This document shows positions 1 through 15,755 of a stretch of DNA of 15,755 nt, piece by piece. Every line of letters starts with the position of its first letter. Position 1 is the stretch's first letter. Source of the DNA: a virus (Duplodnaviria; Heunggongvirae; Uroviricota; Caudoviricetes); the IMG/VR virus record IMGVR_UViG_2667527582_000008, positions 1 to 15,755 of that record; one strand, 5' to 3'. Both the position numbers and the translations under genes were made by a program. Below the pieces are notes generated by a model, which made no database searches, was not told where the DNA came from, and saw nothing but the letters and a program-made list of their open reading frames with translations.

Positions 1-1194
1 GTGGCACGGACAACACGCCCCCTGACCAACACCGAAGTTCTGCGCGCAAAAGCAATCGATAAGGATCTAACGCTGCATGATGGCGATGGACTTTTCCTGC
101 TAGTGAAAACCAGCGGCAAGAAACTATGGCGCTTTCGCTATCTACGTCCGGCAACAAAGCAGCGGACCATGATGGGGCTCGGAGCCTTCCCCTCCCTTTC
201 ACTTGCTGATGCTCGAAGTCTAAGAGCGGATTACCTTGCTTTACTAGCCAACAAAATCGACCCACAAATTCAAGCCGAAGCCGCAGAGGAAGAGCAGCAA
301 ATCGCTCTGGAAAGTATTTTTTCAACGGTCGCCGCTAACTGGTTCAAGCTAAAAAGCAAAAGCGTTACCCCTGACTACGCAAAAGACATTTGGCGCTCAC
401 TGGAGAAAGACGTATTTCCTGCAATCGGTGAAATCCCTGTTCAGCAAATCAAAGCACGAACATTGGTTGAAGCCCTTGAGCCAATAAAAGCTCGTGGAGC
501 GCTTGAGACGGTACGTCGACTGGTGCAGCGTATTAACGAGATAATGATTTATGCCGTAAACACTGGTCTGATTGATGCAAACCCAGCATCAGGTGTTGGA
601 ATGGCCTTTGAAAAGCCAAAAAAACAAAATATGCCGACGCTTCGGCCAGAAGAATTACCAAAGCTGATGCGTTCTCTAGTAATGTCAAATCTATCTGTTA
701 CGACTCGCTGTCTCATTGAATGGCAGCTTCTGACCCTTGTGCGTCCTTCTGAAGCATCTGGTACTCGGTGGGCAGAGATCGATCTCGAAGCAAAGCTCTG
801 GACCATTCCAGCCGAACGTATGAAGGCTAAGCGCGAGCACATAGTTCCACTATCTCTTCAGGCATTAGAGATTCTTGATGTTATGAAGCCTATCAGTGCG
901 CATCGTGAACATGTTTTTCCGAGTCGGAATGACCCAAAGCAACCAATGAATAGCCAGACGGCAAATGCTGCTTTAAAACGGATTGGATATGGGGGTAAAT
1001 TAGTTGCACATGGTTTACGCTCTATAGCGAGTACAGCAATGAATGAAGCTGGTTTAAATTCAGATGTGATTGAAGCAGCGCTTGCTCACATTGAGAAGAA
1101 TGAGGTTCGCAGAGCATACAATCGTTCCACTTACCTTGAAAAAAGAAAGGGCCTTATGAATTGGTGGGGCAATTTCATAGTGAATAGCAAGTAA
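1..1194 (+). CDS. int: P4-type tyrosine integrase; start at or just beyond the window edge
   Basis: 397-codon ORF from the window edge (GTG at 1) to TAA at 1192-1194. N-terminal LTNTEVLRAKA...DGDGLFLLV...GKKLWRFRY matches the arm-binding N-terminus of P4-family integrases; C-terminal HGLRSIAS and RAYNRSTY match the tyrosine-recombinase catalytic boxes. Confidence 0.9.
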   Translation: MARTTRPLTNTEVLRAKAIDKDLTLHDGDGLFLLVKTSGKKLWRFRYLRPATKQRTMMGLGAFPSLSLADARSLRADYLALLANKIDPQIQAEAAEEEQQIALESIFSTVAANWFKLKSKSVTPDYAKDIWRSLEKDVFPAIGEIPVQQIKARTLVEALEPIKARGALETVRRLVQRINEIMIYAVNTGLIDANPASGVGMAFEKPKKQNMPTLRPEELPKLMRSLVMSNLSVTTRCLIEWQLLTLVRPSEASGTRWAEIDLEAKLWTIPAERMKAKREHIVPLSLQALEILDVMKPISAHREHVFPSRNDPKQPMNSQTANAALKRIGYGGKLVAHGLRSIASTAMNEAGLNSDVIEAALAHIEKNEVRRAYNRSTYLEKRKGLMNWWGNFIVNSK

Positions 1195-1204
1195 GGATAT
1201 AAAA

Positions 1205-2320
1205 ATGAGCACGAGAGAATTCCCATGCAAAGCATCAAATATTTATGATAAAAATATTAACTTTCTATTTGGCTCAGGAGCTTCAGCATCGTATATACCA
1301 ACGCTGTGGCTTGCTGAAAACACCACTTATGAGACATTATTAACGCATAAAGATTGTATCGATGTTAAGGATTTTATCTTATGTTCTTATTTCAATAAAA
1401 TCATTAGAAAAACATTTTGCATTGAGCCAAGTGTAGAAAACAAAAAATACACCTCAACAATAAATAGCTATACAGATTTTCTAGATGAACTTGTTACTTT
1501 ATTAGAAAAAAAAGGCTCCAATCAAATAAGACGAGCCAATATTTTCACAACTAACTATGATCTTTTTTTTGAAACAGCAGCAGACAATGCATTAGCTAAG
1601 AAAACATTCCATTTCAATGATGGTGCTATAGGTTTTAAAAACAGAAGATTAAACATTAGTAATTTTCATATTACTACTTGGCATCAAGGAACTCATGATA
1701 TGTACAAACATGAGTTACCAACTATCAATTTAATTAAAATGCATGGTTCGGTCTCATGGAAAAGAGATGAGAATGAAACAATAAGCATCAACTACCCAAG
1801 TGTTTCACCTGAATTAATAAATTTAGAGACAGATAAAACCATAGATGATTTAGTAATTACCCTAAATACAACTAACGATGATCTAGCTGATTACTTGGAT
1901 TTAAATGCTAATGACCAAAATTCTCTTGAAGAATTCAAATCATACTATAACTCACTCGCGATAGTTAATCCGACCAAAGAAAAGTTTTCAGAAACAGTAT
2001 TTCAGCAACACTACTATCAGAGCTTAAGATTATTAAGCTATGAATTAGAGAAACCACAAACTGTATTAATTTGTTTTGGGTTTTCATTTCAAGACGAGCA
2101 CATTCTTGAAATAATAAAAAGATCTTTAAGTAATCCAACACTAAAAGTATTTGTTTTTTGCTACAACAATCAAAGCAAGCAAGATATAAATAATACAGTA
2201 AATGACCCCAGAATAACCTTCATTTATCCTAAAGAAGTTGATCATAAAATTTCTTTTGATACTTTTATTGATAGAATTTTCAAATCAGAAACAGGAGATT
2301 GGGTAACATGGACGAACTGA
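1205..2320 (+). CDS. SIR2-family (sirtuin-like NADase) protein, first gene of a SIR2-HerA type anti-phage pair
   Basis: ATG at 1205 with AAGGA 7 nt upstream, 10 nt after int stop. Motifs read from translation: FLFGSGASASYIPT (Gly-rich NAD-binding loop), IFTTNYD (defense-type SIR2 motif), KMHGS (candidate catalytic His). No CxxC...CxxC zinc ribbon. Gene is AT-rich. Confidence 0.8.
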   Translation: MSTREFPCKASNIYDKNINFLFGSGASASYIPTLWLAENTTYETLLTHKDCIDVKDFILCSYFNKIIRKTFCIEPSVENKKYTSTINSYTDFLDELVTLLEKKGSNQIRRANIFTTNYDLFFETAADNALAKKTFHFNDGAIGFKNRRLNISNFHITTWHQGTHDMYKHELPTINLIKMHGSVSWKRDENETISINYPSVSPELINLETDKTIDDLVITLNTTNDDLADYLDLNANDQNSLEEFKSYYNSLAIVNPTKEKFSETVFQQHYYQSLRLLSYELEKPQTVLICFGFSFQDEHILEIIKRSLSNPTLKVFVFCYNNQSKQDINNTVNDPRITFIYPKEVDHKISFDTFIDRIFKSETGDWVTWTN

Positions 2321-4077
2321 ATATAGGTAAAGTGACCCAAGTAAAAGGAACCACTGTCAAAGCAAAAATAAACCATGACTTGTTCCAATCAACATACTTC
2401 CACAATGGAAAAATATTGCGTGGTATATCAATAAATGAATTTGTATTAGTTCGTAAAGGTTATCAGGACATTGTAGGTAAGATCATAGGTGAGGAAATTG
2501 TTGAGAACTTTAACATTCGTACTGATGACATTGAGCAGAAAAAATATGAAAGATTCGTTGAACTAAATATTCTCGGGTATTTTTTTGAGGGTAAATTCTA
2601 CTCTGGAATAAAATATCTCCCAATGATAAATGATAGACTTTATTTAATTTCGGATGATAAAATATCTGAAATTTATAGTTTTAGCAAAAATACAAAAACT
2701 CCGCTCATTAACATTGGCAAATCCATGCTAGAGGAATTACCAATAAACATTCCCATAAACGGTGTTTTTAATTCTCATATAGGTATTTTTGGAAATACAG
2801 GAAGTGGAAAGTCAAATACTCTAGCAAAAATATATCAATCACTTTTCAATAGAATTGAAAACAAACAACAATTGATCGATAAGTCAAATTTCGTATTGAT
2901 TGATTTCAATGGTGAATATGGGACATTAGAGAATTCCTTTCCAGAACTATGTCACTCCACAAAACTTAGCACAAAAAAAGATGGTGATAAGATATATTTC
3001 GGTGAAAAAGAATTTTGGGATGATGAACTGTTGTCAGTTTTATTCTCTGCAACCGAGAAAACACAAAAACCATTTCTTACACATTTAATAAAGAGCAAGT
3101 TAAAATATGATGACGATCTTAACACATATTTAAAAAGAACAATTGAAATAATGTTTGGAACAAATCCTCACAAAGAGACCGTTAATTTATTAAAAAGTCT
3201 ACTGCCTTATTTCGATGAGAGCGATCAACAAAAGATACGAGATGAACTATCTCTCTTTACTTGGCATTCAAACCAAGAAAAATATACACATCCTTCGAGT
3301 TGGCTTGACACTACTGCTGAAGTTTTAAAACACACTCAAGCAACATACAATAGCCAATTCCATGTTACTAGTGTATTTGATGAAATTGCTATACGTGCAA
3401 CACTGCAATTAATAAATTCTGTATCCAGAAACTATGTTCAATATGATCACATATATCCTTTGATAAACAAAATAATAGCAATGAGCTCATCTCTAGCAAA
3501 GGTTATAGAAATAAACCGCGCTCAACAAAGCTATAAACCAATATCCATAATCTCTCTCAAAGAATGCAATCAAACCATAAAAAAAACGATTCCGATGATG
3601 ATTGCGAAATGTTCCTTCATAGATCACAAATCTTCGGACAACAAAAAAGAAAGCTTTCATTTAATAATAGATGAAGCTCACAACATTCTTTCCGAAAGCT
3701 CTGTGAGGGAGGCTGAGACTTGGAAAGATTATCGACTTGAATTATTTGAGGAGATAATAAAGGAAGGTAGGAAGTTTGGTTATTTTGTAACTATTTCAAG
3801 CCAGCGACCATTTGATATATCGCCAACAATCGTATCACAACTTCATAATTATTTCATACATCGCTTGGTAAATGAAAACGACCTTTACCTTCTTAAAAAC
3901 ACCTTAAGTACATTAGATGCAGCATCCAGAACACTTATACCTACCCTTCCTCCAGGCGCATGCATAATTTCGGGAACAGCATTTCATACTCCGCTTCTTG
4001 TGCAGATCGATAGACTTTCTGAAGAAAGTGCACCGCAAAGTGACACGCTCGATCTTGAGAGTCTGTGGCGTCTTTAA
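2308..4077 (+). CDS. HerA-like P-loop ATPase, partner of the upstream SIR2 gene
   Basis: Walker A GIFGNTGSGKSNT at nt 2791-2814; Walker B / DEAH-like HLIIDEAHN at nt 3661-3684. ATG at 2308 with AGGAG 10 nt upstream is preferred over the track's TTG at 2299. Overlaps the SIR2 stop by 13 nt, implying translational coupling. About 589 aa, AT-rich. Confidence 0.8.
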   Translation: MDELNIGKVTQVKGTTVKAKINHDLFQSTYFHNGKILRGISINEFVLVRKGYQDIVGKIIGEEIVENFNIRTDDIEQKKYERFVELNILGYFFEGKFYSGIKYLPMINDRLYLISDDKISEIYSFSKNTKTPLINIGKSMLEELPINIPINGVFNSHIGIFGNTGSGKSNTLAKIYQSLFNRIENKQQLIDKSNFVLIDFNGEYGTLENSFPELCHSTKLSTKKDGDKIYFGEKEFWDDELLSVLFSATEKTQKPFLTHLIKSKLKYDDDLNTYLKRTIEIMFGTNPHKETVNLLKSLLPYFDESDQQKIRDELSLFTWHSNQEKYTHPSSWLDTTAEVLKHTQATYNSQFHVTSVFDEIAIRATLQLINSVSRNYVQYDHIYPLINKIIAMSSSLAKVIEINRAQQSYKPISIISLKECNQTIKKTIPMMIAKCSFIDHKSSDNKKESFHLIIDEAHNILSESSVREAETWKDYRLELFEEIIKEGRKFGYFVTISSQRPFDISPTIVSQLHNYFIHRLVNENDLYLLKNTLSTLDAASRTLIPTLPPGACIISGTAFHTPLLVQIDRLSEESAPQSDTLDLESLWRL

Positions 4078-4432
4078 TTCAATTGCCGCCTAATCCTCAT
4101 CTTCATCATGAAGACGCATTTGATGGAGTTGCAAAGATGGAAATAGGCCACGCCCTAAAGGCGTTGGCCTAAATTGGCGTAACATTTAAACACATGCAAA
4201 ACCATGCATCCTATAGAGGTTTATGCCTTGATAAACAGCCTCTCAAAGATTCAACCTCACCTTTTTATTACTCCATATACGGCTGTTCTCAATTTTAGAC
4301 TTTAACCTCATACGCTGGGTTGTTTAACCCTAGCTCACTGACTTCCTTTTGCTTCCTTACAGCGTACAAAATAGCAAGCCCCCCCTTATTTACCCTACCG
4401 CATTATCGATGAGTTGTATGCTCGGCATCCTT

Positions 4433-5467
4433 TTACCTCGAAGCGCGCGCTCGTAGCCCCGCCACGCCTGCCCGCTTTAGGGAGTGGTTTTCATGCAGTT
4501 GCATGATAGGCTCTAAACCGCGCCTTATCTGGTCTGGGAAGTAAAAATGCAAGTGCATAAAGTCATGCGATTTCATGCAGTATAGACATGCACTCAGGCT
4601 ATAGACATCAAAAAACCCGGCACTGGCCGGGCTTAAGTGAGCTTTTCTGTTCAGGTCAAAACAGCTTACTTTTTTTCTGTCGTCATGCGATCCTGATACT
4701 GGAGCTGAACCGGTCAGGCTCATCACGTCGTCCCGGAATCTTAACGGTAATATTTCATTCGTCCACTTCAGCATTAGATTCAGGATAAATTCACGATACA
4801 GCGTATCTGCATCATTTGTGCCTTCAATAATGCCCGGTATATGTGCTGAGCTATATCGCTCAAATTGTCTGTACTTCATCCTGAGCAGGCCGCTCAATTC
4901 GGCACCGTGGAAAATAAAAAAGTCTCGTAAAAGCTCATCGATACGCTCCTCAGTGATGCCATGATGGCAGTTTATATAAACGTTTGCCTTACGCGTGGTC
5001 GCTTGAGCCAGTACCGGCAGCTGATCTTCTTTTTCAGTAATCAGCCCGGCGAGTTCTGTGGCTGTTTCCTGTTGTTCCAGATACTCAGCCCGGAGAGCTT
5101 TCATCTCCGGCGTTACGATGCCGCCGCTCTGGTTAAGCAGTTCCCTGAACTGCGCCCGATTGTCTTTGCTGGCCTGCTCAGTTTCGGTCTGATGCTGGCG
5201 CAGAGCCCTGAGGTTCTCAATGGCTGCTTCTTCGGCCTGTCTGGCCTCCACCCAGGCCTGCATTTTTTGGTAAAGGTCGATAATTCGGGACTGCCAGTCG
5301 GAGGAAAGGCTTTTTGTCAGTTTTTCCGTCTCGCGGGCGATTTCATTTGCAGGCAAATTCATGAGCCAATCCGCATCCTGAAGCGGTTTTTTTGCCCTCG
5401 CGAGGAGTGTTACTACGTGTCCGGTTGCGGCCTGAATCTGGTTTTCCGTCAATTGTTGTTCTGTCAT
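4433..5467 (-). CDS. Satellite late-operon protein, Sid-like paralog (hypothetical); 3' end uncertain
   Basis: ATG at 5467-5465 with GGAGG 9 nt upstream, 19 nt after the delta-like stop. N-terminal half is coiled-coil-like and shares motifs with ORF 6312-7064 (FRE..Q..MTP.MK.LRAE; S..IG.V..TNDP...L..FI). The frame runs without a stop through the terminator hairpin and the cos-like GC spot, so the last ~70 codons may not be real. Confidence 0.55.
   Translation of the reverse strand: MTEQQLTENQIQAATGHVVTLLARAKKPLQDADWLMNLPANEIARETEKLTKSLSSDWQSRIIDLYQKMQAWVEARQAEEAAIENLRALRQHQTETEQASKDNRAQFRELLNQSGGIVTPEMKALRAEYLEQQETATELAGLITEKEDQLPVLAQATTRKANVYINCHHGITEERIDELLRDFFIFHGAELSGLLRMKYRQFERYSSAHIPGIIEGTNDADTLYREFILNLMLKWTNEILPLRFRDDVMSLTGSAPVSGSHDDRKKVSCFDLNRKAHLSPASAGFFDVYSLSACLYCMKSHDFMHLHFYFPDQIRRGLEPIMQLHENHSLKRAGVAGLRARASR
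4610..4631 (-). terminator. Intrinsic terminator-like hairpin on the minus strand, inside the 3' part of ORF 4433-5467
   Basis: Minus strand reads CCCGGC-CAGT-GCCGGG followed by TTTTTT: a perfect 6-bp GC-rich stem, 4-nt loop and U-tract. Confidence 0.5.
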
Positions 5468-5760: not shown

Positions 5761-6315
5761 TCAGTCCCCTCCTTTTTCATTAAGCCTGTTGAGGCGGGCC
5801 AGAAAAACTTTATGTTTTGCCGGGGTGAAAATGGCTGAAGCATCAGCTCGCATTGATGCATCCACCGTTAATCCGGTTTCGTCGATAACGCTCTTATATG
5901 CTGCTGAAATTACAGGAGTACGGATTTCGGTTTGTCGGACTACAGCGGTGCGTAATATTTTCATTGCCGCCTCAAGCCCGTATGGTGCGCAAAGAAAAGG
6001 AGCCAGAGCGTCAGTGAGTGCATTACCATGCTCGCTCATGAAGTTTTCAGTTGCGCCTGTAACACAGCTTTCCAGCACAATCTGGTGAGCATAAAGACCG
6101 TCCCTGGCGGCGCAGTTAATCTGCCATTCGAGGAGAGCAATACGCTCACGAAGATTCTCAAGCTGGCTGGCATATGCTGCCGGTTTTTCTTCAGTATCCA
6201 GCAGAGCCGCCAGACGAAGTTGGCTGGTACTTTGCACATTACGTAGTGTCAGCCAGCTTTTTATCGCCGCGCGATAGTTGTTGAGAGCTTCCTTAGTAAT
6301 GTTTCCAGGATTCAT
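5761..6315 (-). CDS. psu: Psu-like protein (polarity suppression / capsid decoration family)
   Basis: 184-aa protein; segments HGNALTDALAPFL and FTPAKHKVF resemble P4 Psu as recalled from memory (not searched). Start ATG overlaps the upstream gene stop (ATGA). Confidence 0.7.
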   Translation of the reverse strand: MNPGNITKEALNNYRAAIKSWLTLRNVQSTSQLRLAALLDTEEKPAAYASQLENLRERIALLEWQINCAARDGLYAHQIVLESCVTGATENFMSEHGNALTDALAPFLCAPYGLEAAMKILRTAVVRQTEIRTPVISAAYKSVIDETGLTVDASMRADASAIFTPAKHKVFLARLNRLNEKGGD

Positions 6316-7064
6316 CCTTTCTCTTCCCCTTTAACCATGTCACGCTGTTTAAGCATCCGGGAACGCGCTGCAGGGCTGGGTGATTGCCTGGCATCCTGTA
6401 GGGCTTTATCGTCCGCATAAATGCTAATCCCCGGCAGGGCAATAACATCCGTTGAAGATACGTTACAGGACAGTGCCGGAGCGGTGAGTTGCTCGCTGAT
6501 AAATTGCTTCAGCACACTTTCGGGGTCGTTTACGGTATGAACTACGCCGATAACGGAAGAAGCGCTTCGCCCCAGAGTCATTTTCAGCAATCCAAGGATC
6601 TGAATAAGTTTCTGGCCGTGTTCCTTCATAAACTCATTCCAGAGCCACTCTGCATGAGTTTCAATCAGCCGGTTATGTTCGCTGATGTAGCGGTTTGCAG
6701 CATCCGCAGTTTTCCAGGGCAGGAATTCTTTTTCTGCGGCGTGAGCTTCAAGCAAATCTTCGAACTCATCAAGTGTTTCGCGTCCCAGGGCGATTTCTGC
6801 ACGCAGTTTTTTCATTCGTGGCGTCATATTCCCCTGATTCTCACGAAACAGGTTTCGCCATTCATCATTAAGCGCCTGCGTCTCCGTTTTTGTATCTTCC
6901 TGACGTTTACGGATAGTTTCAGTCATTGCAGCGGCTTCAGTTTGTATTCGCCGTTCTTCCTGCCAGACAGCTTTTGCTGCTTTAACTTTTTCTACCGCTT
7001 CGCGAATTTTCGGTGGGAGGGAGGGTGTAATGTTTGCATCAGGGATCTGGTTAACAGTTGTCAT
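6312..7064 (-). CDS. Satellite late-operon protein, Sid-like (candidate capsid-size determination scaffold); paralog of ORF 4433-5467
   Basis: ATG at 7064-7062 with GGAG 5 nt upstream is preferred over the track's TTG at 7097. Coiled-coil-like N-terminus; stop overlaps the psu-like start. Assignment as Sid is by position, size (~250 aa) and composition, not by a search. Confidence 0.55.
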   Translation of the reverse strand: MTTVNQIPDANITPSLPPKIREAVEKVKAAKAVWQEERRIQTEAAAMTETIRKRQEDTKTETQALNDEWRNLFRENQGNMTPRMKKLRAEIALGRETLDEFEDLLEAHAAEKEFLPWKTADAANRYISEHNRLIETHAEWLWNEFMKEHGQKLIQILGLLKMTLGRSASSVIGVVHTVNDPESVLKQFISEQLTAPALSCNVSSTDVIALPGISIYADDKALQDARQSPSPAARSRMLKQRDMVKGEEKG

Positions 7065-7165
7065 GGCTGCTCCGGTAGTGTTTTGTTGTTGTGTCAATTG
7101 TGCCGGTGCCCATACAAGCGCACTACCGATGAGGATTGTGCCAGTGACTGAACAATGACCTTGTT

Positions 7166-7219: not shown

Positions 7220-7435
7220 ACTATTCACTACTGTTCACTTTCATAAAAGAATAGTAAATACATGTGGTTAAGGAGTGCAGGGTTTAAATAAAAGTGGTCA
7301 TCTACTGTTCATGACTGTTCACAGAGATAAATTTAACTTATATTTGTTTTTCATATAAATCGCGATATTTATTTCAGTTTATTACTGGATTTTTATTCCT
7401 CACCACTATTCACACGTATTCAACACTATTCAATA
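7220..7435. repeat. Cluster of iteron-like ACT(A/G)TTCA(C) repeats; candidate replication origin / primase-binding repeats or regulator sites
   Basis: Copies at about 7220-7228, 7229-7238, 7303-7311, 7314-7323, 7404-7413, 7416-7424 and 7425-7434, plus an inverted copy near 7148-7153, all in ORF-free AT-rich DNA. They resemble the TGTTCACC-type repeats of the P4 ori/crr regions as recalled. Confidence 0.4.
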
Positions 7436-7967: not shown

Positions 7968-8092
7968 ATGCATACTATTTCCGTTTCCACCCCAGCACCA
8001 GCTGCTCCGGTGCTCCCGATTCCGACTGAGCAGGAGCGCTTCATACGATTACCTGAAGTGATGCACCTTTGCGGGCTATCCCGTTCAACCAT
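7968..8092 (+). CDS. AlpA-family phage transcriptional regulator, 5' portion only (cut by gap)
   Basis: ATG at 7968 preceded by GAGAGG; translation MHTISVSTPAPAAPVLPIPTEQERFIRLPEVMHLCGLSRSTI carries the RLPEV...GLSRSTI helix-turn-helix signature of AlpA-type regulators; runs into the N gap at 8093. Confidence 0.55.
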
Positions 8093-8102
8093 NNNNNNNN
8101 NN
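8093..8102. other. Assembly gap (10 N)
   Basis: Run of n; interrupts the AlpA-like CDS. Confidence 0.95.
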
Positions 8103-8106
8103 TAAA

Positions 8107-8140
8107 GGCTATCTTTTTCTATCGTTTGACTGTCTGGAGT
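8107..8140. repeat. 34-bp repeat, copy 1 (33/34 identical to 9449-9482)
   Basis: GGCTATCTTTTTCTATCGTTTGACTGTCTGGAGT; here it lies downstream of immunity gene 1 at a contig edge. Confidence 0.8.
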
Positions 8141-8192
8141 CCTCCACCTACTCTGCCATCAGCGCACACGATGTTTGATTATCCTTACATAC

Positions 8193-8576
8193 TTATTTTC
8201 CGTGGCCAAAATTCAGAATTCTCCCATCATTTTTGCCTATTTCTATAATAAAAACCCCACCAGCAATTTGGTCTGAGTGAATGGTACCTTCAACAACCCA
8301 ACTTGTTGTTAACTCAGTGATTTCGTATGGTTTTTCTTCTTCTGCGGCATCCTGTCCATAACGATTCTTAACATATATCTCAGCTAATTCCAATGCTATA
8401 GCTTTATTTTTAACCAAATTTCTAACGGTATATTTACCTTCACTTTCATACTTGCGCATTATTTTAATATTATTATTACACTGCGCCCATGTGTTGTATG
8501 TAAAAACAAACAAAGATACAATGACACAGTTCCTAAACAATATTTTTTTACATATTACCATGAACTCTGCAGACAT
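8193..8576 (-). CDS. Putative Rhs immunity protein for the toxin at 8548-9176
   Basis: 127-aa ORF directly after and overlapping the toxin gene; ATG at 8576 with AAAGGA 7 nt upstream; AT-rich. N-terminus is hydrophobic ([16 protein letters not shown]), which suggests a signal peptide or membrane anchor. Confidence 0.5.
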
Positions 8577-9176
8577 TAGGTAATCCTTTTCTGTTTGTTA
8601 TTTCCTTCCCGTGGTTATCTATTGCTTTAAAATTACCACTGGGCGTACCTAAATAAAATGACTTGATATTGTTATCTTTACTTTTAACTATTTTCTCATC
8701 TTTACCTGAAAATATTTCGTCCCAATATTCTCCATGACTATCTGCACCATGAGTATGATAAGCTGATACTTTCTCAGTACCATTAGGGCAAGGGCTATTG
8801 AATGGATATGATCCTTTTCTTTCTCCTCGGTTAGGTGCTGTTGAGAAATATCTGCCACTATTATCCTTACATATTAAACCAGCGAACTCTTTATCTTCGC
8901 AAATAGATTGGCTATTTATTTTATTTAAGGCGTCATATGCGGTGCTATCTATAGAATCAAATTTATCTGGACCTATCATAGCGGATAGTGTGCCGCAAAG
9001 ACCATTAGTACATGCCCCCGATTTTGCATCCTCCCACATAGATAAACCCAGGGGGTCGATGTCTGATATCGGATTCAATTGATATCCATACAGGTTCCAT
9101 CCCCCCTTCAGTCCAATCGGATCCTGAGTGATATATCGCCCCTGCAGCGGGTCATAATAGCGGTGGCGGTTGTAAT
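8548..9176 (-). CDS. Rhs C-terminal fragment: end of the conserved core plus a variable toxin domain of unrecognised family; 5' cut by gap
   Basis: Translation [44 protein letters not shown] is the conserved Rhs core end (DPxGL boundary); it is followed by ~165 aa of AT-rich, Cys-containing variable sequence ending at TAA 8548. Confidence 0.8.
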
Positions 9177-9186
9177 NNNNNNNNNN
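9177..9186. other. Assembly gap (10 N)
   Basis: Run of n inside the conserved Rhs core. Confidence 0.95.
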
Positions 9187-9187
9187 A

Positions 9188-9430
9188 TATTTGCCCGAGT
9201 ATAAATGCTCCGATATCTCTACGGATATAATTTTTGTCAGTGCAGAATTCAATTGCCAATCTAACAGCGTCTTGCCCCCCTCTTAACTGTAATACTCTGG
9301 CAGATGAAATCCTTTTCAAGGAATTGCGATCATCAAGTAAGCGAAATAATTCATCATCATTTAGTTTCTTACATTTATTATATAAACCATACTCTTTACT
9401 TGCCTTTCTTTTCTGGTATGTATTTGACAT
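9188..9430 (-). CDS. Putative Rhs immunity protein for the toxin at 9451-9935; 3' end cut by gap
   Basis: ATG at 9430-9428 with GGAGG 8 nt upstream, 21 nt after the toxin stop. Translation MSNTYQKRKASKEYGLYNKCKKLNDDELFRLLDDRNSLKRISSARVLQLRGGQDAVRLAIEF... looks like a helical (HEAT-like) repeat. Confidence 0.5.
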
Positions 9431-9448
9431 TGCAGGAACCTCCACAAG

Positions 9449-9482
9449 GGCTATCTTTTTTTATCGTTTGACTGTCTGGAGT
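9449..9482. repeat. 34-bp repeat, copy 2 (33/34 identical to 8107-8140)
   Basis: GGCTATCTTTTTTTATCGTTTGACTGTCTGGAGT; here it forms the last codons and stop of Rhs toxin 2. Confidence 0.8.
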
Positions 9483-9935
9483 GACGACAATTCCAGGCTT
9501 TCTGTGTGCTTTTTGCATCTTTAGCACTAATATCACCACAATCAATTAGTTCCTGAAGTACGTCACATCTGTCGGGTTTTTTCCCATCACTCCAGAATCT
9601 GTCATTTATTATGTCATTGACACGATCAGTTATCCCTGTGTCTGCAACATTTCCACGAGAAGCTATCATTGTTATATCTAATGCTAGTCCCGGATTATTC
9701 AATATTAGAGAGTCAAATATTCTTTGTGATGCTGTATCGTTCCACCATTTTGTCAATGCTTTTGCAGCATTATCATCTGCTTGCTGCTGTGCAGGGCTTT
9801 TGGGCCATGGAATTGGCAAGGGGAATGGTCTAGGAAAAACTTCTAACCCCAGAGGATCTGTATTCGTAACTGGATTCAACGGATACTGATAAAAATTCCA
9901 TCCCCCCTTCAGCCCAATCGGATCCTGAGTGATAT
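9451..9935 (-). CDS. Rhs C-terminal fragment: end of the conserved core plus a second, different variable toxin domain; 5' cut by gap
   Basis: Upstream codons read [30 protein letters not shown] (Rhs core end with DPxGL), followed by ~130 aa of variable sequence ending ...SRQSNDKKR. Confidence 0.8.
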
Positions 9936-9945
9936 NNNNNNNNNN
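9936..9945. other. Assembly gap (10 N)
   Basis: Run of n between the Rhs core and the truncated cbeA-like gene. Confidence 0.95.
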
Positions 9946-10594
<649 letters not shown>

Positions 10595-10659
10595 ACATTG
10601 CGTACAACCTTCCCGATTTACATTTCTGAACTTCCTCCCTTGTTTACCTATTGCGTAAT

Positions 10660-10695
10660 GCGCCTGCTACTACCCGGCAGGCGCGTTATCTTTTT
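10660..10695 (+). terminator. Rho-independent terminator after the cbtA-like gene
   Basis: GCGCCTGC-(9-nt loop)-GCAGGCGC perfect 8-bp stem followed by GTTATCTTTTT. Confidence 0.6.
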
Positions 10696-11342
10696 ACGGA
10701 CAAACAATCATGCAACCAGAAGTTGAAGTATTAACCGATCATAATGAGCTAATTTGTTCGAGCTTTATTGAACACATTGCCAACACATTAAATTTAGGAG
10801 TGGTGTACAACTAAACCTGCAGCCAAGGATGTATAGTGAGCGAAGCCCTATCAGGCCTTTTTGGTCAGTAGATAAGATTGATCTTCGTTGATAGAATTTA
10901 CTTACACCAGCTGTTACATTAAGATAATTTTTTGGTGGGAGAATGATAAGATCTTACGTAACAATTTGATTTTAATGGTGCGATAATAGGAACAAATAAA
11001 CCAACTTAACTCGTTGTTTTGCAAAAATTTATTCTTATCGGCAAATAATCCTATACACATGGCTATACACATTGGCGGGAGCGTTCAAAACTCGTCCACC
11101 TCATCGCACAACAAAATACTTTTTCTTAAGAAAAGCGTACATACTATTCACCATCATATTTTTATATGAAATATCAATATGATAGAAGTTAACCGTTAAG
11201 TGAAGAGTGAACAGCAAACCCTACATTTGATCTTAGACCATAATAAAACCCAGCATTCGCCGGGTTGGTGGTCCACTCGCATTAAATTTATGATAGGTCA
11301 AAACTATCTTTTCCTAAATTTTAACCTATTCCAAAAGAACAG

Positions 11343-11361
11343 GGCTGTGAAGTTAGCCCCA
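11343..11361 (-). terminator. Possible terminator hairpin after the standalone SIR2-like gene
   Basis: Minus strand GGGGCT-AACTTCAC-AGCCC followed by a T-rich tract (TGTTCTTTTGG), about 20 nt after the stop at 11379; stem is short. Confidence 0.35.
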
Positions 11362-11378
11362 TCCTTAACCTATTAAAT

Positions 11379-12476
11379 TTATTCAAGATATAAGGATTGC
11401 TCAATGAACTGACTGGCACCACATAAATGAACTTTAACCTCACGCTCACCAAAAAACGCCTGCCAATATTTTTTTATATCCTTTTCTTTTTCTTTATCTC
11501 TTTCATATGTTACGACTTCAATTTTAACACTTCGTTTAATCATTCGAGATAAAAGTTGTCTCATTTCAAAATCGGCATTCGGCAACGAATAACCTATGAA
11601 GATTATTTTGTCAGCTTCAGATAATTCAATACCAGCGTTCTGCCAAATTATTTTGTATTGAGGATTTGATAGATCCTTTAGAAAGGTAGGCATAATAAGA
11701 TTTGATATCAGTCTATTCTCTTTATTTACTGCGTCATGATTTTTATCACAATGCCTACATGTTGCCCCTCTCGCAACCCCTATTTTTTTATTAAACCCGA
11801 CATAAAGGCGCATGCATCGCGAACATTGTAGCCAGTTAAGTGAACCATGAATCTTCAGCAGTTTCACATTAAAACCACCTGCTCCTAACATTTCTAGACC
11901 CGGCTTTACCGTTTCGTCCCTTTCTTCTAAGGAGCTTATATAACAGCAATAATCAACAACTGCACGTCCGTGGTAGTTCCTTTGGATATAATCATACAAT
12001 GAATTATCTAGTAGAATATCCCAGTTGGTACTAATAACGCTTACAGAATCATGCTGTCTATAATTACCACCCAGCCTCTCGCTACATTTCCTCACTAAAT
12101 ACTCAGCAAAGTGGTCAATATATTCCTTACTATTCCCTTTTCTTTCCAAGATCCTCCTAATGGCCAAACCAATGATATTAAAAACAGCATCCCTTGTCTT
12201 TGTCATTTGCTCAATAGACAGACCTCTAAACTGGATATTATCCGCCAAGCACCGGTCTAAAGGAGTGAACATATCTTCAATCTGAACATCTTTAAATTGC
12301 TCACGTTTATAATATAATTGTTCAGTAAGTAAGTTTTCAAAAAGCTGAAAATCTGAACCATTAAAATAGTTTGAATTCTCTTGGTGTATTTTAAATATCT
12401 CACCCATTATTTCCGCCTGCATAGGCGCGCCAGCTTCTTTTGAAAATCCAGCGCCAAGCACAAATACAGTTTTCAT
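11379..12476 (-). CDS. Standalone SIR2-like (sirtuin-fold) protein with Cys4 zinc ribbon; candidate single-gene NAD-depleting defense effector
   Basis: ATG at 12476 with AAGAGG 6 nt upstream (track's TTG at 12482 not preferred). Translation has VFVLGAGFS at residues 5-13, VISTNWD, and KIHGSLNW followed by CSRC-(18 aa)-CRHC, the sirtuin-type zinc ribbon placement. No N- or C-terminal extra domain (365 aa). AT-rich, with terminator-like hairpins on both sides and a candidate promoter. Confidence 0.75.
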   Translation of the reverse strand: MKTVFVLGAGFSKEAGAPMQAEIMGEIFKIHQENSNYFNGSDFQLFENLLTEQLYYKREQFKDVQIEDMFTPLDRCLADNIQFRGLSIEQMTKTRDAVFNIIGLAIRRILERKGNSKEYIDHFAEYLVRKCSERLGGNYRQHDSVSVISTNWDILLDNSLYDYIQRNYHGRAVVDYCCYISSLEERDETVKPGLEMLGAGGFNVKLLKIHGSLNWLQCSRCMRLYVGFNKKIGVARGATCRHCDKNHDAVNKENRLISNLIMPTFLKDLSNPQYKIIWQNAGIELSEADKIIFIGYSLPNADFEMRQLLSRMIKRSVKIEVVTYERDKEKEKDIKKYWQAFFGEREVKVHLCGASQFIEQSLYLE

Positions 12477-12490
12477 CCACAACCTCTTAA

Positions 12491-12530
12491 ATTATATTCT
12501 GCGGTAAGATATTTGAAGATTAGCTTATTC
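12491..12530 (-). promoter_or_regulatory. Candidate sigma70-type promoter for the SIR2-like gene
   Basis: Minus strand shows TATAAT (plus 12491-12496) about 15 nt upstream of the ATG, with a weak TTCAAA -35-like hexamer about 15-17 nt further upstream; lies just after the primase terminator. Confidence 0.35.
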
Positions 12531-12541
12531 ATATGTCAAGA

Positions 12542-12566
12542 AAAAACCGGCTTCCACCGGTTTAAA
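12542..12566 (-). terminator. Terminator-like hairpin after the primase C-terminal fragment
   Basis: Minus strand AACCGG-TGGAAG-CCGGTT (6-bp stem) followed by TTTTT, immediately after the stop at 12570. Confidence 0.4.
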
Positions 12567-12569
12567 AAC

Positions 12570-12886
12570 CTATTTTGTGATTTCGAGACTGCACTTCGGT
12601 AGCCAGTCAGCATTGCATTCTTCTCTAAGTGCCAGATTGGTCTGCATTCCCTGATTGGTCCGCCGCTTCTCGTACTGCAGCCCATACTCTTTCAGCATTA
12701 ACGGCAGCCCCTTGCCAAACATGGTCAGACTGAGCGTATTTTTATAGCCGTTGGCTTCCATGTAGACCAGATAGGCATGGTAAAGGTATGTACGTGGCTG
12801 GCGCGGGACAATATTGGCGTTCCCCATAAACATGCCGTTGGTGTCGGGTAATGCCTCAAGATAGCCACAAAAATCAAATGCTGGAT
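12570..12886 (-). CDS. C-terminal fragment of a P4-family (alpha-like / D5-like) primase-helicase; 5' cut by gap
   Basis: Translation ...PRQPRTYLYHAYLVYMEANGYKNTLSLTMFGKGLPLMLKEYGLQYEKRRTNQG... shows the aromatic-rich ...Y..Y.....NG......S...F...L...G pattern typical of the C-terminal domain of P4-type primases; stop TAG at 12570. Confidence 0.55.
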
Positions 12887-12896
12887 NNNNNNNNNN
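12887..12896. other. Assembly gap (10 N)
   Basis: Run of n; the track ORF 12570-13190 that spans it fuses two unrelated proteins and is an artefact. Confidence 0.95.
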
Positions 12897-13190
12897 ACCA
12901 CCCTGTTGCAGCAGGATCAGCCACGGACTCTGCCCGCCTGCAAGCTGCGTGGCCACGTCGGTGAACTGCGCAGGCAGCATACGCATGGCGGCTTTATACT
13001 GCCCGACGGAAATCCCCGCTTTCTGTGCAGCCAGCGCCTGCCGGCTCATCGACTGTTCAACGACTGCCGCTGTTTTTTTCGCATCACTTTCCGTACCGGA
13101 AAAATGACGCCTGACTCTGGCCATCTGCTCGTCAAATCTGGCCGCATCCAGACTCAAATCAACGACCAGATCGCCTACCGGTTCAGCCAT
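12897..13190 (-). CDS. H: Tail tape measure protein, N-terminal 98 codons only (cut by gap)
   Basis: MAEPVGDLVVDLSLDAARFDEQMARVRRHFSGTESDAKKTAAVVEQS...QFTDVATQLAGGQSPWLILLQQGG matches the lambda gpH N-terminus as recalled; ATG at 13190. Confidence 0.9.
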
Positions 13191-13620
13191 ACCGGACTCC
13201 TCCTGCGATCCCTTCTGATACTGTCATCAGCATTACGTCATCCTCCGTCATGTCCGCCACATCCGGGGAAGCGGGGATAACTTCATTCCCGTCCGGGCCA
13301 AAACGAACGCCTCCGGCAAGCCCTGCCGCTTTCTGCATCAGCACATCATCTTCAGGCTCTTCGTCAGCCTCACGCCGGTTCAGCAGACTGAAATCCAGCG
13401 GATGCATCTCCGGATCGCTGAAAAACAGGCTGAGCACGGTGTACGTCAGCCCGGAAAAGTGCATATCCAGCAGAACATCATGAAAATAATGGGTACTGTA
13501 AAAGCGGTGCCAGTCGGCATACTCCGTGGATGACATCCCGGCAAGCATGGCACGCCAGTCGGGTCGCCCCATCTCACGCGCCAGTTTCAGGGCAAAACTC
13601 AGCTCACCGTCGAACACTTT
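13183..13620 (-). CDS. T: Tail assembly chaperone T segment, expressed as a G-T fusion by -1 programmed frameshift
   Basis: ORF in the -1 frame relative to G, opening at the slippery site and ending overlapping the H start; translation ends ...MFDGELSFALKLAREMG..., lambda T-like. Confidence 0.8.
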   Translation of the reverse strand, partial: KVFDGELSFALKLAREMGRPDWRAMLAGMSSTEYADWHRFYSTHYFHDVLLDMHFSGLTYTVLSLFFSDPEMHPLDFSLLNRREADEEPEDDVLMQKAAGLAGGVRFGPDGNEVIPASPDVADMTEDDVMLMTVSEGIAGGVRYG

Positions 13621-14021
13621 CCCGCAGAAACAGGCTCTGCAGGCCCGGCGTCCTCTGCCTGTTCAGGAGCATCATTCACCACAAACTCATACATACCGGA
13701 CAGCCGGTACACCACGTTTTCAGCATGAGAAATTGCCTCTGTGGGCCAGGTGGTAAGCACTTCCTGCTCAATCTGTTTAACGGCTTCATTCATGGACGGC
13801 ATCTGCGTCTTCTGCGGATGGTTATGCCACAGGGACATCGCCACCAGAAACGCGCCGGTTCTGATGGCGTCTTCCACAGTAAACTTCCGGTTGCTGTCTG
13901 ACTCCGCCTGTTCTGCCTGCCGTTTCATCAGGGCGAGATGCTCAATACGCTGCAGGGCTGACAGTTCAGAAAGCGTGACGGTCACGCCGTTATGTTCAAA
14001 TGATTCGGTTTTCAGGAACAT
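13599..14021 (-). CDS. G: Tail assembly chaperone G
   Basis: 140-aa protein MFLKTESFEHNGVTVTLSELSALQRIEHLALMKRQAEQAES..., near-identical to lambda gpG as recalled. Confidence 0.9.
   Translation of the reverse strand: MFLKTESFEHNGVTVTLSELSALQRIEHLALMKRQAEQAESDSNRKFTVEDAIRTGAFLVAMSLWHNHPQKTQMPSMNEAVKQIEQEVLTTWPTEAISHAENVVYRLSGMYEFVVNDAPEQAEDAGPAEPVSAGKCSTVS
13617..13623 (-). promoter_or_regulatory. Programmed -1 ribosomal frameshift slippery heptamer GGGAAAG (G to G-T)
   Basis: Minus strand reads G GGA AAG about 16 nt upstream of the G stop codon; the T frame opens exactly here. Confidence 0.75.
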
Positions 14022-14036
14022 CGCTGACTCTCCGGA

Positions 14037-14777
14037 TTAACTGTCGGTGACAGTGATTTCTGCAACCGCAGCAAGTTCACCATTACCGGATACAACCGGA
14101 ATGTTGACCTTACCTGCAGCAACGCCTTTCACGGTGATGGTTATACCACTGACCGACACGGTGGCTTTTGTTTTATCCGCTGACACCGCACGGAAGCTCT
14201 TGTCAGTTGCGCCCTCCGGCTGGAATGCCACGGTCAGCGTGGTGCTCTGCCCTTTCACCACCGAGGAGCTGGCAGGCGTCACGGTCATACCGGTTGCCGC
14301 CGTCACCGTACTGCGATCTTCTGCCATTGACGGACGGCCCACATTGGTGACCTTCACCGTACGGGTGATCACTTCCTTCGCCGTCACCGCCTTACCGATA
14401 CTGCTGACCCAGCCACGGAACACATCGACCGTGCCGTTCGGGAAGCGGATTTTATAGGCACGGGTATCACCTTCATTAAACCACGCCAGCAGCGCCTGCT
14501 GCCCCTGCTCTCCGGGCATCCACGCCAGCGTGAAGCTGGTATCTCCGGCGGATTTCTGCCCCTGCCCGGTCGCGGTCCAGTCCGCATCTTCATCATCGAG
14601 ATAACTGTCGTCATAGGACTCAGCGGTCAGTTCGCCGGGCGTCAGGTCTTTAACTTTTGCCAGACGCGACCAGTCAACGTCTGAAAGCGGGTTCGCATAA
14701 GGGTCACCGCTCCCCTTATAAACCCACAGGGTGGTCCCGGCACCTTTCACCGGCATTGTAGGATTTGGTACAGGCAT
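14037..14777 (-). CDS. V: Major tail tube protein V
   Basis: 246-aa protein from ATG at 14777: [45 protein letters not shown]..., lambda gpV-like including the C-terminal Ig-like region. Confidence 0.9.
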
Positions 14778-14784
14778 AGCGTCC

Positions 14785-15180
14785 TCACATTTCATAGGTA
14801 ATGACATAAGTCAGATCGGCTGAACTCCACAGGCCCGCATCATCGTCGCGCCGGTAGTCATAGCCACTGGCCACCATACTGGTGATCAAATCTGACAGTG
14901 CCGGGATATCGCTCATCACCGGATAAATCCGGGACTCCATCCACGCATCCAGCTCTGAATCCGGCACCTGAGCAGGCAGGAAAACTTCGATATGCAGCTC
15001 CGCCTGCCAGGTATCGCTGTCCAGCTCTTCGCCCGTGTATTCAGCGCCGGTGAGATAAACGGCAATTGCCGGAAAATCTTCCTCATCAAAAACAGCGGGG
15101 CGACCATCAAAAAGCGTCGCCCCGGTGTCATGCTTCTCCAGTGCATCCAGTACGGCTGCACGGAGTTCAGTATGTTTCAT
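14785..15180 (-). CDS. U: Tail terminator protein U
   Basis: 131-aa protein [52 protein letters not shown]..., lambda gpU-like. Confidence 0.9.
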
Positions 15181-15755
15181 CGCTTTATTACCATCCTCAG
15201 TTGATGCTGCAGCGCATAGCCCAGCTCTTTCGGAAGACGCTCACGCCGTATCCGCTCAATATTCTGTTTAAACGCCGTGGTCAGCGGCACCGCCATCGGG
15301 ATTTTCACCACATCAATGGGGTAACGGTTTTTCCCGGCCACACGCTGCATGACATGCCAGCGGCCATTTTTCAGTTGCTGAATAAACGCGCCGGGAATAC
15401 GACGGTTTCCCACCACAAGCACGCTGCCGCCACCTTTCAGGGCTGAACGCTGCCCCTTTTTACGACGCCTGCGTCGGGACAGGACAATCCGCGCGTTACC
15501 CAGCTTTATTACGGGCAAATCCCCCCGGTTAACCCTGATTCTGGCCTGCGGATTTTTGACCGTGGCCCTTTTCAGCCTGGCCCTTTCCTTTACCAGTTTC
15601 CGGCGTACCTTTGTCTCACGGGCAACCTGTGACGCCGACTGCGATATCGCGGATGAAGCAACGCGGTTAATGGCCATTGCGGCGGCACCGGGCACCGCCG
15701 TTCTGCTGATACGGCTGAGGTTTTCAACGGCCTGCTCAAGACCTTTTATGACCAT
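15177..15755 (-). CDS. Z: Tail completion protein Z
   Basis: 192-aa protein M(V/A)IKGLEQAVENLSRISRTAVPGAAAMAINRVASSA..., lambda gpZ-like; start codon lies at the window edge and the stop overlaps the U start. Confidence 0.9.
   Translation of the reverse strand: MVIKGLEQAVENLSRISRTAVPGAAAMAINRVASSAISQSASQVARETKVRRKLVKERARLKRATVKNPQARIRVNRGDLPVIKLGNARIVLSRRRRRKKGQRSALKGGGSVLVVGNRRIPGAFIQQLKNGRWHVMQRVAGKNRYPIDVVKIPMAVPLTTAFKQNIERIRRERLPKELGYALQHQLRMVIKR

Follow-up and report, generated by a model that had tools for sequence, protein, structure and literature searches.

Satellite P4 and its helpers among the P2-like phages are the closest described systems with which the locus studied here can be compared. 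The P4 late operon, Psid-sid-delta-psu, has a TGT-N12-ACA dyad about 81 nt before sid, codes for Sid, Psu and an Ogr/Delta zinc-finger protein, and is followed by a terminator and the cos site. The order of psu and delta is swapped in 20% of P4-like elements (PMC8628076), and the P4 defence hotspot directly adjoins cos, between psu and int (PMC9122126). Sid is an external scaffold that sets capsid size (PDB 7JW1), and its C-terminal helix makes most of the contacts with the capsid protein gpN (PMC7552001). As reported by PMC9122126 from Ziermann & Calendar (1990), the cos sites of P4, P2, 186 and Fels-2 have 19-nt 5' cohesive ends; according to the same authors as cited in PMC5247547, about 55 bp around cos, mostly on the right-end side, are shared by P2-like phages.

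The stretch of DNA that we analysed (hereafter the window, the 15,755 nucleotides of the IMG/VR record IMGVR_UViG_2667527582_000008) is identical to contig JRSG01000018.1 of the Escherichia coli assembly GCA_001413685.1 and carries a P4-like satellite with a minus-strand late operon in the order sid-psu-delta-sid2 (Table 1). A preliminary description, based on the letters of the window, had remarked that the last open reading frame (ORF) of this operon runs through an apparent terminator and a GC-rich, cos-like island. Our comparisons with related satellites and helper phages lead us to explain this ORF as a frameshifted allele of sid2 that accidentally overruns an ordinary, non-coding terminator and cos site, a reading to which we assign a probability of about 90%.

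Table 1. Coordinates, strand and supporting evidence of the features discussed in the window.
Feature	Coordinates	Strand	Evidence
Tyrosine integrase (int)	1-1194	+	
SIR2 protein	1205-2320	+	PADLOC SIR2/HerA model match
HerA-like ATPase	2299-4077	+	PADLOC SIR2/HerA model match
Frameshift extension, residues 267-344 (VSCFDLN...RARASR, then stop), non-conserved	4433..4669	-	
cos core, 65 bp, ATCATGCAACTGCATGAAAACC...AAAGCGGGCA + 19-mer + CGCGCGC	4443..4507	-	
Predicted 19-nt cohesive end, GGCGTGGCGGGGCTACGAG	4450..4468	-	aligns with annotated cosL/cos of P2 and 186
Distal cos element, three GCATG-containing repeats (GTGCATGTCTATACTGCATGAAATCGCATGA)	4563..4593	-	
Late-operon intrinsic terminator, AAGCCCGGC-CAGT-GCCGGGTTT + T-run	4610..4634	-	sequence and fold
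Ancestral TGA stop, out of frame in the window	4656..4658	-	
sid2 CDS at family length, last late-operon gene; residues 1-266 authentic here	4656..5467	-	
Homopolymer A7 (T7 on +), site of the 1-nt contraction	4670..4676	-	closest relatives have A8
delta, Ogr/Delta zinc-finger late activator, 90 aa	5487..5759	-	
psu, 184 aa	5761..6315	-	Pfam PF07455, 2e-33
sid orthologue, 250 aa according to the annotation in relatives	6312..7064	-	PHROG 6165, 1.9e-88
TGT-N12-ACA dyad, candidate Delta/Ogr-activated late promoter	7137..7154	-	read from sequence

A P4-like satellite with a fourth late gene

The late operon of the window resembles that of P4 both in its candidate promoter, a TGT-N12-ACA dyad placed about 81 nt ahead of the sid start codon, as in P4 Psid, and in its content, as it encodes Sid and Psu along with an Ogr/Delta zinc-finger protein, and a terminator and cos come next. 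By contrast, it differs from the P4 operon in the order sid-psu-delta, in having a Delta protein made of a single 90-aa unit, and in the presence after delta of a fourth gene, sid2, coding for a predicted Sid paralogue of 270 aa. These minus-strand late genes converge with the int, SIR2 and HerA genes of the plus strand, and the SIR2/HerA defence hotspot starts just past cos. Although the P4-like core genes int, psu, delta and sid are present, the copy in the window is probably a truncated, decaying remnant. Similarity to the intact satellite of strain S21 ends at position 8092, within an alpA-like gene; the alpA/ASH side is kept in S21 and in L011, a second strain with a seven-base A-tract in sid2. 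Beyond 8092, alpha and epsilon were not found in the window, apart from a lone, reversed alpha fragment (12591-12886, 89% identity). From this position onward, the window contains Imm-NTF2-2/DUF4329/Ntox34 toxin-immunity genes, a CbtA toxin gene and lambdoid tail genes, as well as a chimeric ORF that joins the N-terminus of a tape-measure protein to the C-terminus of a Pox_D5 primase. When compared with complete E. coli genomes, positions 8093-15755 form a mosaic and have no near-full-length match, which makes this part uninformative about homopolymer error rates. Such probable decay of the satellite makes a tolerated frameshift plausible. A search of the whole window against Rfam retrieved no family at gathering score, and thus no known RNA element that would explain the region.

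The 270-aa product of sid2 resembles the Sid protein encoded by the window. It matches PHROG 6165 (1.1e-20) and shares with the window Sid 30% identity over 185 residues (E = 2e-16), and its direct comparison with P4 Sid gives a weak match (pairwise E = 0.002). P4 Sid (7JW1) was also the only match, again weak (E = 0.16), when the sequences of the PDB were searched with the family profile. An AlphaFold2 model of the protein (mean pLDDT 72, pTM 0.57) had its best TM-score, by a wide margin, with P4 Sid (chain 7JW1_E; 0.52/0.59, rmsd 5.5 Å), which ranked fourth by Foldseek E-value (0.04) with generic coiled coils alongside and no hit reaching E <= 0.001. On the basis of the PHROG 6165 match, the identity to Sid, and the PDB and model matches, we call the sid2 product a predicted Sid-like paralogue. 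Our Pfam scan of both the 344-aa and the 270-aa proteins detected no significant family and no match to the Psu model; precomputed tables do list PF07455 for the sid2 protein. With P4 Sid it has in common, besides PHROG 6165, the long antiparallel helices predicted for it. Unlike P4 Sid, it has about 50 additional residues at its N-terminus, and its C-terminal tail, which is basic, predicted to be disordered and closed by an invariant Phe, takes the place of the Sid helix α6. By analogy with the C-terminal helix of P4 Sid and its contacts with gpN, this conserved basic tail, ...RKxKxF, may be important for the sid2 product, and a protein in which its last four residues are swapped for 78 unrelated ones may be impaired.

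The end of sid2 and the A-tract

In agreement with the preliminary description, the ORF begins at the ATG at 5467 of the minus strand and meets no stop before the TAA at 4435-4433, for a total of 344 codons, and all the elements that had been pointed out along it are present, with coordinates right to within about 3 nt. That description had left the choice between a coding sequence (CDS) that in reality ends earlier, because of a frameshift or a sequencing error, and an unusual overlap of coding and cis-acting sequences. The former is supported by the gene ends of all full-length relatives examined and by the one extra A that the closest of them carry. The eight complete E. coli genomes in which we found the region (93.6-99.4% identity) all annotate a CDS of 813 nt (270 aa). 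Among 5.8 billion proteins, the 344-aa ORF retrieved 34 homologue clusters with full-length members of 270 or 274 aa, the latter in some Pantoea-type relatives, together with a few truncated, frameshifted or fused variants. In none of the 34 clusters does the alignment extend past residue 270 of the query (coverage <=78%): instead of continuing to the C-terminus at 4433, homology ceases around residues 266-270, and the C-terminal F270 is invariant in the alignment. The proteins of relatives end in ...DRxKxKxF, to which the 274-aa forms add PGQK. The same picture emerges at the DNA level from 19 loci of Escherichia, Enterobacter, Pseudocitrobacter, Erwinia, Pantoea and Pseudescherichia: each has ...RKxKxF followed by a stop (in a single locus, of 274 aa, after an additional PGQK). 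Seventeen of these loci share the cos core of the window, and their stop lies 176-203 nt upstream of it.

Alignment of the window with S21 and with a more distant strain leaves a single gap, corresponding to a run of seven A in the window and eight in the other two. S21, H14 and PO06101, which are 99.4% identical to the window, have A8 and encode ...SHDDRKKSKLF followed by a stop, the A8 frame being GAC AGA AAA AAA AGT AAG CTG TTT TGA (D R K K S K L F stop); in the window the frame is lost four codons before this normal TGA. We therefore propose that an A8 tract (...R-K-K-S...) located four codons before the stop contracted to A7, which would shift the frame and cause the TGA to be skipped, the new frame being open by chance down to the TAA at 4433. 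Along its way, this accidental frame would cross the terminator, the GCATG repeats and the 19-nt cohesive-end sequence. The 78-residue tail is thus translated non-coding DNA, namely the T-run, the GCATG repeats and cos. The odd composition noticed in the preliminary description is real, since the share of Cys, His and Phe rises from 5.6% in residues 1-266 to 19% in the last 78 (Fisher p = 8e-4). Its Cys and His codons belong to the GCATG repeats, and the T-run of the terminator supplies two of its six Phe codons. As an A8 contraction near the 3' end of a gene, found on several backgrounds, this allele is similar to the homopolymer frameshift alleles and pseudogenes of prophages and satellites. 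It differs from them in that its new frame stays open for 78 codons over cis elements, hence the apparent overlap.

The missing A could reflect either true slippage in the genome or an artefact of sequencing or assembly; in the latter case the true genome would carry A8 and the 344-aa WP_064759933.1 would not exist in the cell. Error is a serious possibility to which we give somewhat less than even odds, and we slightly favour the mutation. Homopolymers of 7-9 bases are classic sites of miscalls, and the three indels that, together with 37 substitutions, separate the window from S21 over 8.1 kb are all located at homopolymers. Two of them are non-coding (C7 versus C9 at about 4378, and one base at 7334) and the third is the A-tract, within the last four codons of sid2. 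However, this 3:37 ratio of indels to substitutions, with indels confined to non-coding DNA or to the last four codons, resembles natural variation filtered by selection; the six substitutions within the ORF are all synonymous, as residues 1-266 do not differ between the window and S21. Only two assemblies, with neighbouring accessions, are known to contain WP_064759933.1, namely GCA_001413685.1 (on a 2.85-Mb contig) and GCA_001413005.1 (on a 30-kb contig), possibly the work of one project and platform. The Logan read assemblies lack this 344-aa form, and the exact 270-aa sequence of S21, by contrast, occurs on 78 contigs. Against an error stands the fact that A7 is common to two assemblies of such unlike contiguity, which are two substitutions apart in 6.6 kb and have a different structure beyond 8092, and thus come from different isolates or, at least, from different data. 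The length of the tract also varies elsewhere: A8 is found in S21, H14, PO06101, 700462, PCP06022, EC261, LR-45, MB06172 and L013; A7, besides the window, in L011, L158 and L162; and A9 in L159-L161. The A7 alleles belong to three sequence backgrounds, and the A9 allele to another one. Some of these other odd-length alleles come from multi-megabase contigs, probably long-read assemblies, which would agree with miscalls; on the other hand, the A9 allele (272 aa, ...RKKKKAVLT) is present on six contigs, including one read-based Logan assembly. The overall pattern fits real replication slippage under weak selection, and it also fits a recurrent miscall. Neither outcome would change our reading of the region.

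Much less probable is the second explanation put forward in the preliminary description, that of an unusual overlap between coding and cis elements, which would imply a function for the long frame. A-runs of this length can slip in replication and, weakly, in transcription, and intrinsic termination can in principle become less efficient when ribosomes translate through the hairpin. One could imagine that programmed slippage at the A-tract, or a phase-variation switch, produces a long isoform that modulates termination via the hairpin, and the recurrence of A7, A8 and A9 alleles on different backgrounds would be in line with it. As a contingency switch, ribosomes translating through the hairpin in the A7 state would weaken termination, allowing read-through across cos and antisense into the SIR2/HerA genes and thereby coupling tail variation to defence expression; we hold this version to be very unlikely, just as the more general one. 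Comparative data speak against both the tract and the extension. The A-run is absent from Erwinia/Pantoea-type relatives and interrupted by a G in L012 and L014. Stops interrupt the extended +1 frame in 15 of 17 relatives that share the cos core of the window, the two exceptions, of which only one is independent, being the near-identical S21 and the distant relative L026, in which the frame is probably open across the region by chance; in addition, as mentioned above, no homologue aligns past residue 270. A7 also occurs in Enterobacter hormaechei P0048 and E. ludwigii P0006, but the P0048 tail has 51 aa and ends in ...IRRG, versus 78 aa in the window, so that frameshifted tails are not conserved in extent. 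Moreover, helper phages conserve the DNA that encodes the tail, and in them it is non-coding. We also considered programmed -1 frameshifting on A AAA AAA and rejected it, because the -1 frame at the heptamer of the A8 tract runs into a TAA at once. Neither a conserved slippery tract nor a conserved open extension, both expected of programmed recoding, is found, and the available genomes largely refute this reading.

The terminator and the cos site

The intrinsic-terminator hairpin claimed in the preliminary description is confirmed, with a 9-bp stem containing six G-C pairs (4634-4613) followed by T6 down to 4610. In the frameshift reading that we favour, it is an ordinary element of the late operon. 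The hairpin stem starts 21 nt after the ancestral TGA of the window, and a GCCCGG...CCGGGC hairpin with a run of five to eight T occupies the same place in all of 20 satellites, where the T-run begins 30-47 nt after the stop. The loop and the loop-proximal positions vary among satellites. The local fold of the window hairpin has an estimated energy of about -14.6 kcal/mol, within a range of -14.6 to -18.4 kcal/mol across satellites. The possibility that the hairpin is part of cos was examined and discarded as the main reading: helper phages share the cos blocks without carrying this hairpin there, whereas all satellites have it immediately after the stop, which marks it as an element of the operon rather than of cos. 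Its conservation and its homology among satellites suggest that this terminator would end late transcription after sid2.

The GC-rich island had been likened, by a partial match over its first 12 nt, to the cohesive ends of P2 and P4. The reverse complement of 4450-4468 is indeed GGCGTGGCGGGGCTACGAG, and its first 12 nt are identical in 186 and Fels-2 (12/12) and nearly so in P2 and P4 (11/12), but the case for cos turned out to be stronger than initially claimed, as the window contains a complete Fels-2/186-type cos region and not just a 12-nt likeness. Over the 19-mer, identity amounts to 18/19 with Fels-2, 14/19 with 186 and 13/19 with P2 and P4; over the 65-bp core, it is 92% with Fels-2, 91% with phage 500465-1, 80% with 186, 75% with P4 and 65% with P2. 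The blocks follow one another in the order GCATG repeats, variable spacer, ATCATGCAACTGCATGAAAACC (4507-4486), AAAGCGGGCA, 19-mer and CGCGCGC (4449-4443), collinear with the joined ends of P4, P2 and 186. The GCATG repeats are almost unchanged in helper phages of the Fels-2 type and can still be recognised in P4 and 186, such that the window possesses both the conserved core flanking cos and a shared upstream block. Approximately 160 nt of the window (4594-4431) match 152 phage records at about 75-77% identity, and the matching phages that we examined are P2-like (Fels-2, RE2010, Klebsiella and Yersinia P2-likes, 500465-1). The matching segment of Fels-2 and 500465-1 has the replication/accessory genes on one side and the portal gene Q on the other, which is where the cos sites of the P2 family are located.

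At least 119 IMG/VR contigs contain the exact 19-mer. We read 80 of them, among which 58 have a P2-type portal gene, detected by tblastn with a fragment of Fels-2 Q, that converges on cos from a distance of 188-3512 nt and identifies these contigs as helper-type phages, and seven are sid2 satellites in which the gene ends 190-204 nt upstream of the 19-mer. Among the 19 other satellite loci, 15 have the 19-mer without any change and two more have one-base variants of it, and conservation among satellites ceases right after CGCGCGC. For the variant cos of L012 and L014, a search of the phage collection for a helper gave no match. That the island resembles P2/P4 cos by chance and has no packaging role, a suspicion that the partial nature of the initial match could raise, is hardly credible given an expectation of 0.01 matches in the window at the 18/19 level, phage cos homology running over some 160 nt, an alignment collinear with the P4, 186 and P2 ends, and an exact 19-mer shared with most other satellites and adjacent to the portal gene in P2-like phages.

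The predicted cos site thus has the properties of those of P4, P2, 186 and Fels-2. It comes after the last late gene and its terminator, abuts the hotspot and int, has the same orientation, and displays in collinear order the GCATG repeats, the ATCATGCA..TGCATGAAAACC box, the AAAGCGGGC box, the GGCGNGGCGGGG start of the overhang, and CGCGCGC. It differs from the P2/P4 site in the overhang, GGCGTGGCGGGGCTACGAG in the window versus GGCGAGGCGGGGAAAGCAC, six bases apart, and from that of Fels-2 by a single base (…GATACGAG). With an overhang so near to that of Fels-2 and far from that of P2 and P4, the predicted helper would be a Fels-2-type P2-like phage and not P2. By homology with these sites, the terminase of such a helper would recognise cos, cut it to leave 19-nt 5' overhangs and package the satellite.

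Implications for P4-like satellites

The overlap between coding sequence and cis elements in this satellite is accidental, and its terminator and cos are ordinary cis elements, with nothing surprising for the field. In practical terms, WP_064759933.1 (344 aa) is best regarded as the frameshifted version of a protein that normally has 270 aa, and its C-terminal 78 residues are unsuitable for family building or domain discovery. The comparison also provides a clean, alignable anatomy for one sub-family of P4-like satellites, comprising the gene end, the terminator, cos and the boundary of the hotspot. In this sub-family, the Fels-2-type cos predicts helper specificity, and the start of the defence-hotspot cargo is marked about 7 nt after the cohesive end. 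Finally, these satellites have a conserved second Sid-like gene after delta, whose putative role in capsid hijacking is possibly worth the attention of specialists.

The second Sid-like gene and its A-tract

The fourth gene of the late operon is conserved. Its product, a second Sid-like protein, is 270 amino acids long, is extended at the N-terminus and has a basic tail whose final residue is an invariant Phe. This gene, sid2, lies 3' of delta in one sub-family of P4-like satellites, whose hosts include Escherichia, Enterobacter, Citrobacter, Salmonella, Klebsiella, Pantoea and Erwinia. Across public assemblies, the A-tract located four codons ahead of its stop varies in length. Eight adenines (A8) represent the majority allele; three sequence backgrounds carry A7 (E. 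coli, E. hormaechei and E. ludwigii). A9 is found on a background separate from those of A7, in six contigs, one of them a Logan read assembly, and its product has 272 amino acids (...RKKKKAVLT). Another homopolymer is also polymorphic, C7 in the window versus C9 in the near-identical E. coli strain S21; it falls in the non-coding spacer separating the HerA gene from cos, the satellite packaging site.

At the other end of the operon, a TGT-N12-ACA dyad constitutes a candidate Delta/Ogr-dependent late promoter, and its distance to sid equals that in Psid, the late promoter of P4. In E. coli 700462 the psu annotation corresponds to a truncated pseudogene; sid, delta and sid2 are all intact in this strain.

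Features of the window and of the satellite loci compared
Feature	Locus	Position	Remarks
SIR2 + HerA gene pair	window	1205-4077	PADLOC HerA model, 7.5e-200
C7/C9 polymorphism	window	4372-4378	
sid2	window	4656-5467	
sid2 A-tract	window	4670-4676	
TGT-N12-ACA dyad	window	7137-7154	~81 nt 5' of sid start codon
Polymorphic-toxin cassette	window	8092-9900	Imm-NTF2-2 immunity gene, DUF4329 protein, Ntox34 toxin domain
CbtA-family type IV toxin gene	window	10190-10594	Pfam, 3.8e-67
Chimeric ORF	window	12570-13190	N-terminus lambda-type tape-measure (TMP_2), C-terminus Pox_D5 primase
alpha-like segment	window	12591-12886	reverse-oriented
psu pseudogene	L002	7347-7511	E. coli 700462
A7 sid2 alleles	L158, L162		
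A9 sid2 alleles	L159-L161		
Variant cos core	L012	4860-5060	Enterobacter intestinihominis
Variant cos core	L014		Pseudocitrobacter vendiensis

An apparently truncated copy in a mosaic

Similarity to the intact satellite stops at position 8092, within an alpA-like gene, and the copy in this strain looks truncated. The polymorphic-toxin cassette follows this limit, and the CbtA-family gene is flanked by this cassette and a prophage remnant. Further on, in the region of the chimeric ORF, one segment matches the 3' end of a P4-like alpha gene at 89% identity. This region is a recombination junction, where the lambdoid prophage remnant meets a P4-like element other than the satellite.

Variation around cos

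The SIR2 and HerA pair fills the defence hotspot of the satellite, with int on one side and cos on the other; at the same site, relatives carry different cargo (a reverse transcriptase, a Cap4 nuclease or a DEAD helicase). In an Enterobacter bugandensis protein annotated as 'integrase' (P0010, 403 amino acids), the N-terminal half of the satellite integrase is fused to sid2 residues ~29-250. The integrase gene and sid2 normally converge, so their fusion implies that an inversion or deletion took out cos and the hotspot. In L012 and L014 the cos core itself differs (…GGGCAGGCGGGCGGGGCAG…), and a search for this variant core in the phage collection returned no match. Both satellites nevertheless retain sid2, the terminator and the GCATG repeats, which suggests cos swapping, that is, the acquisition of a different helper.
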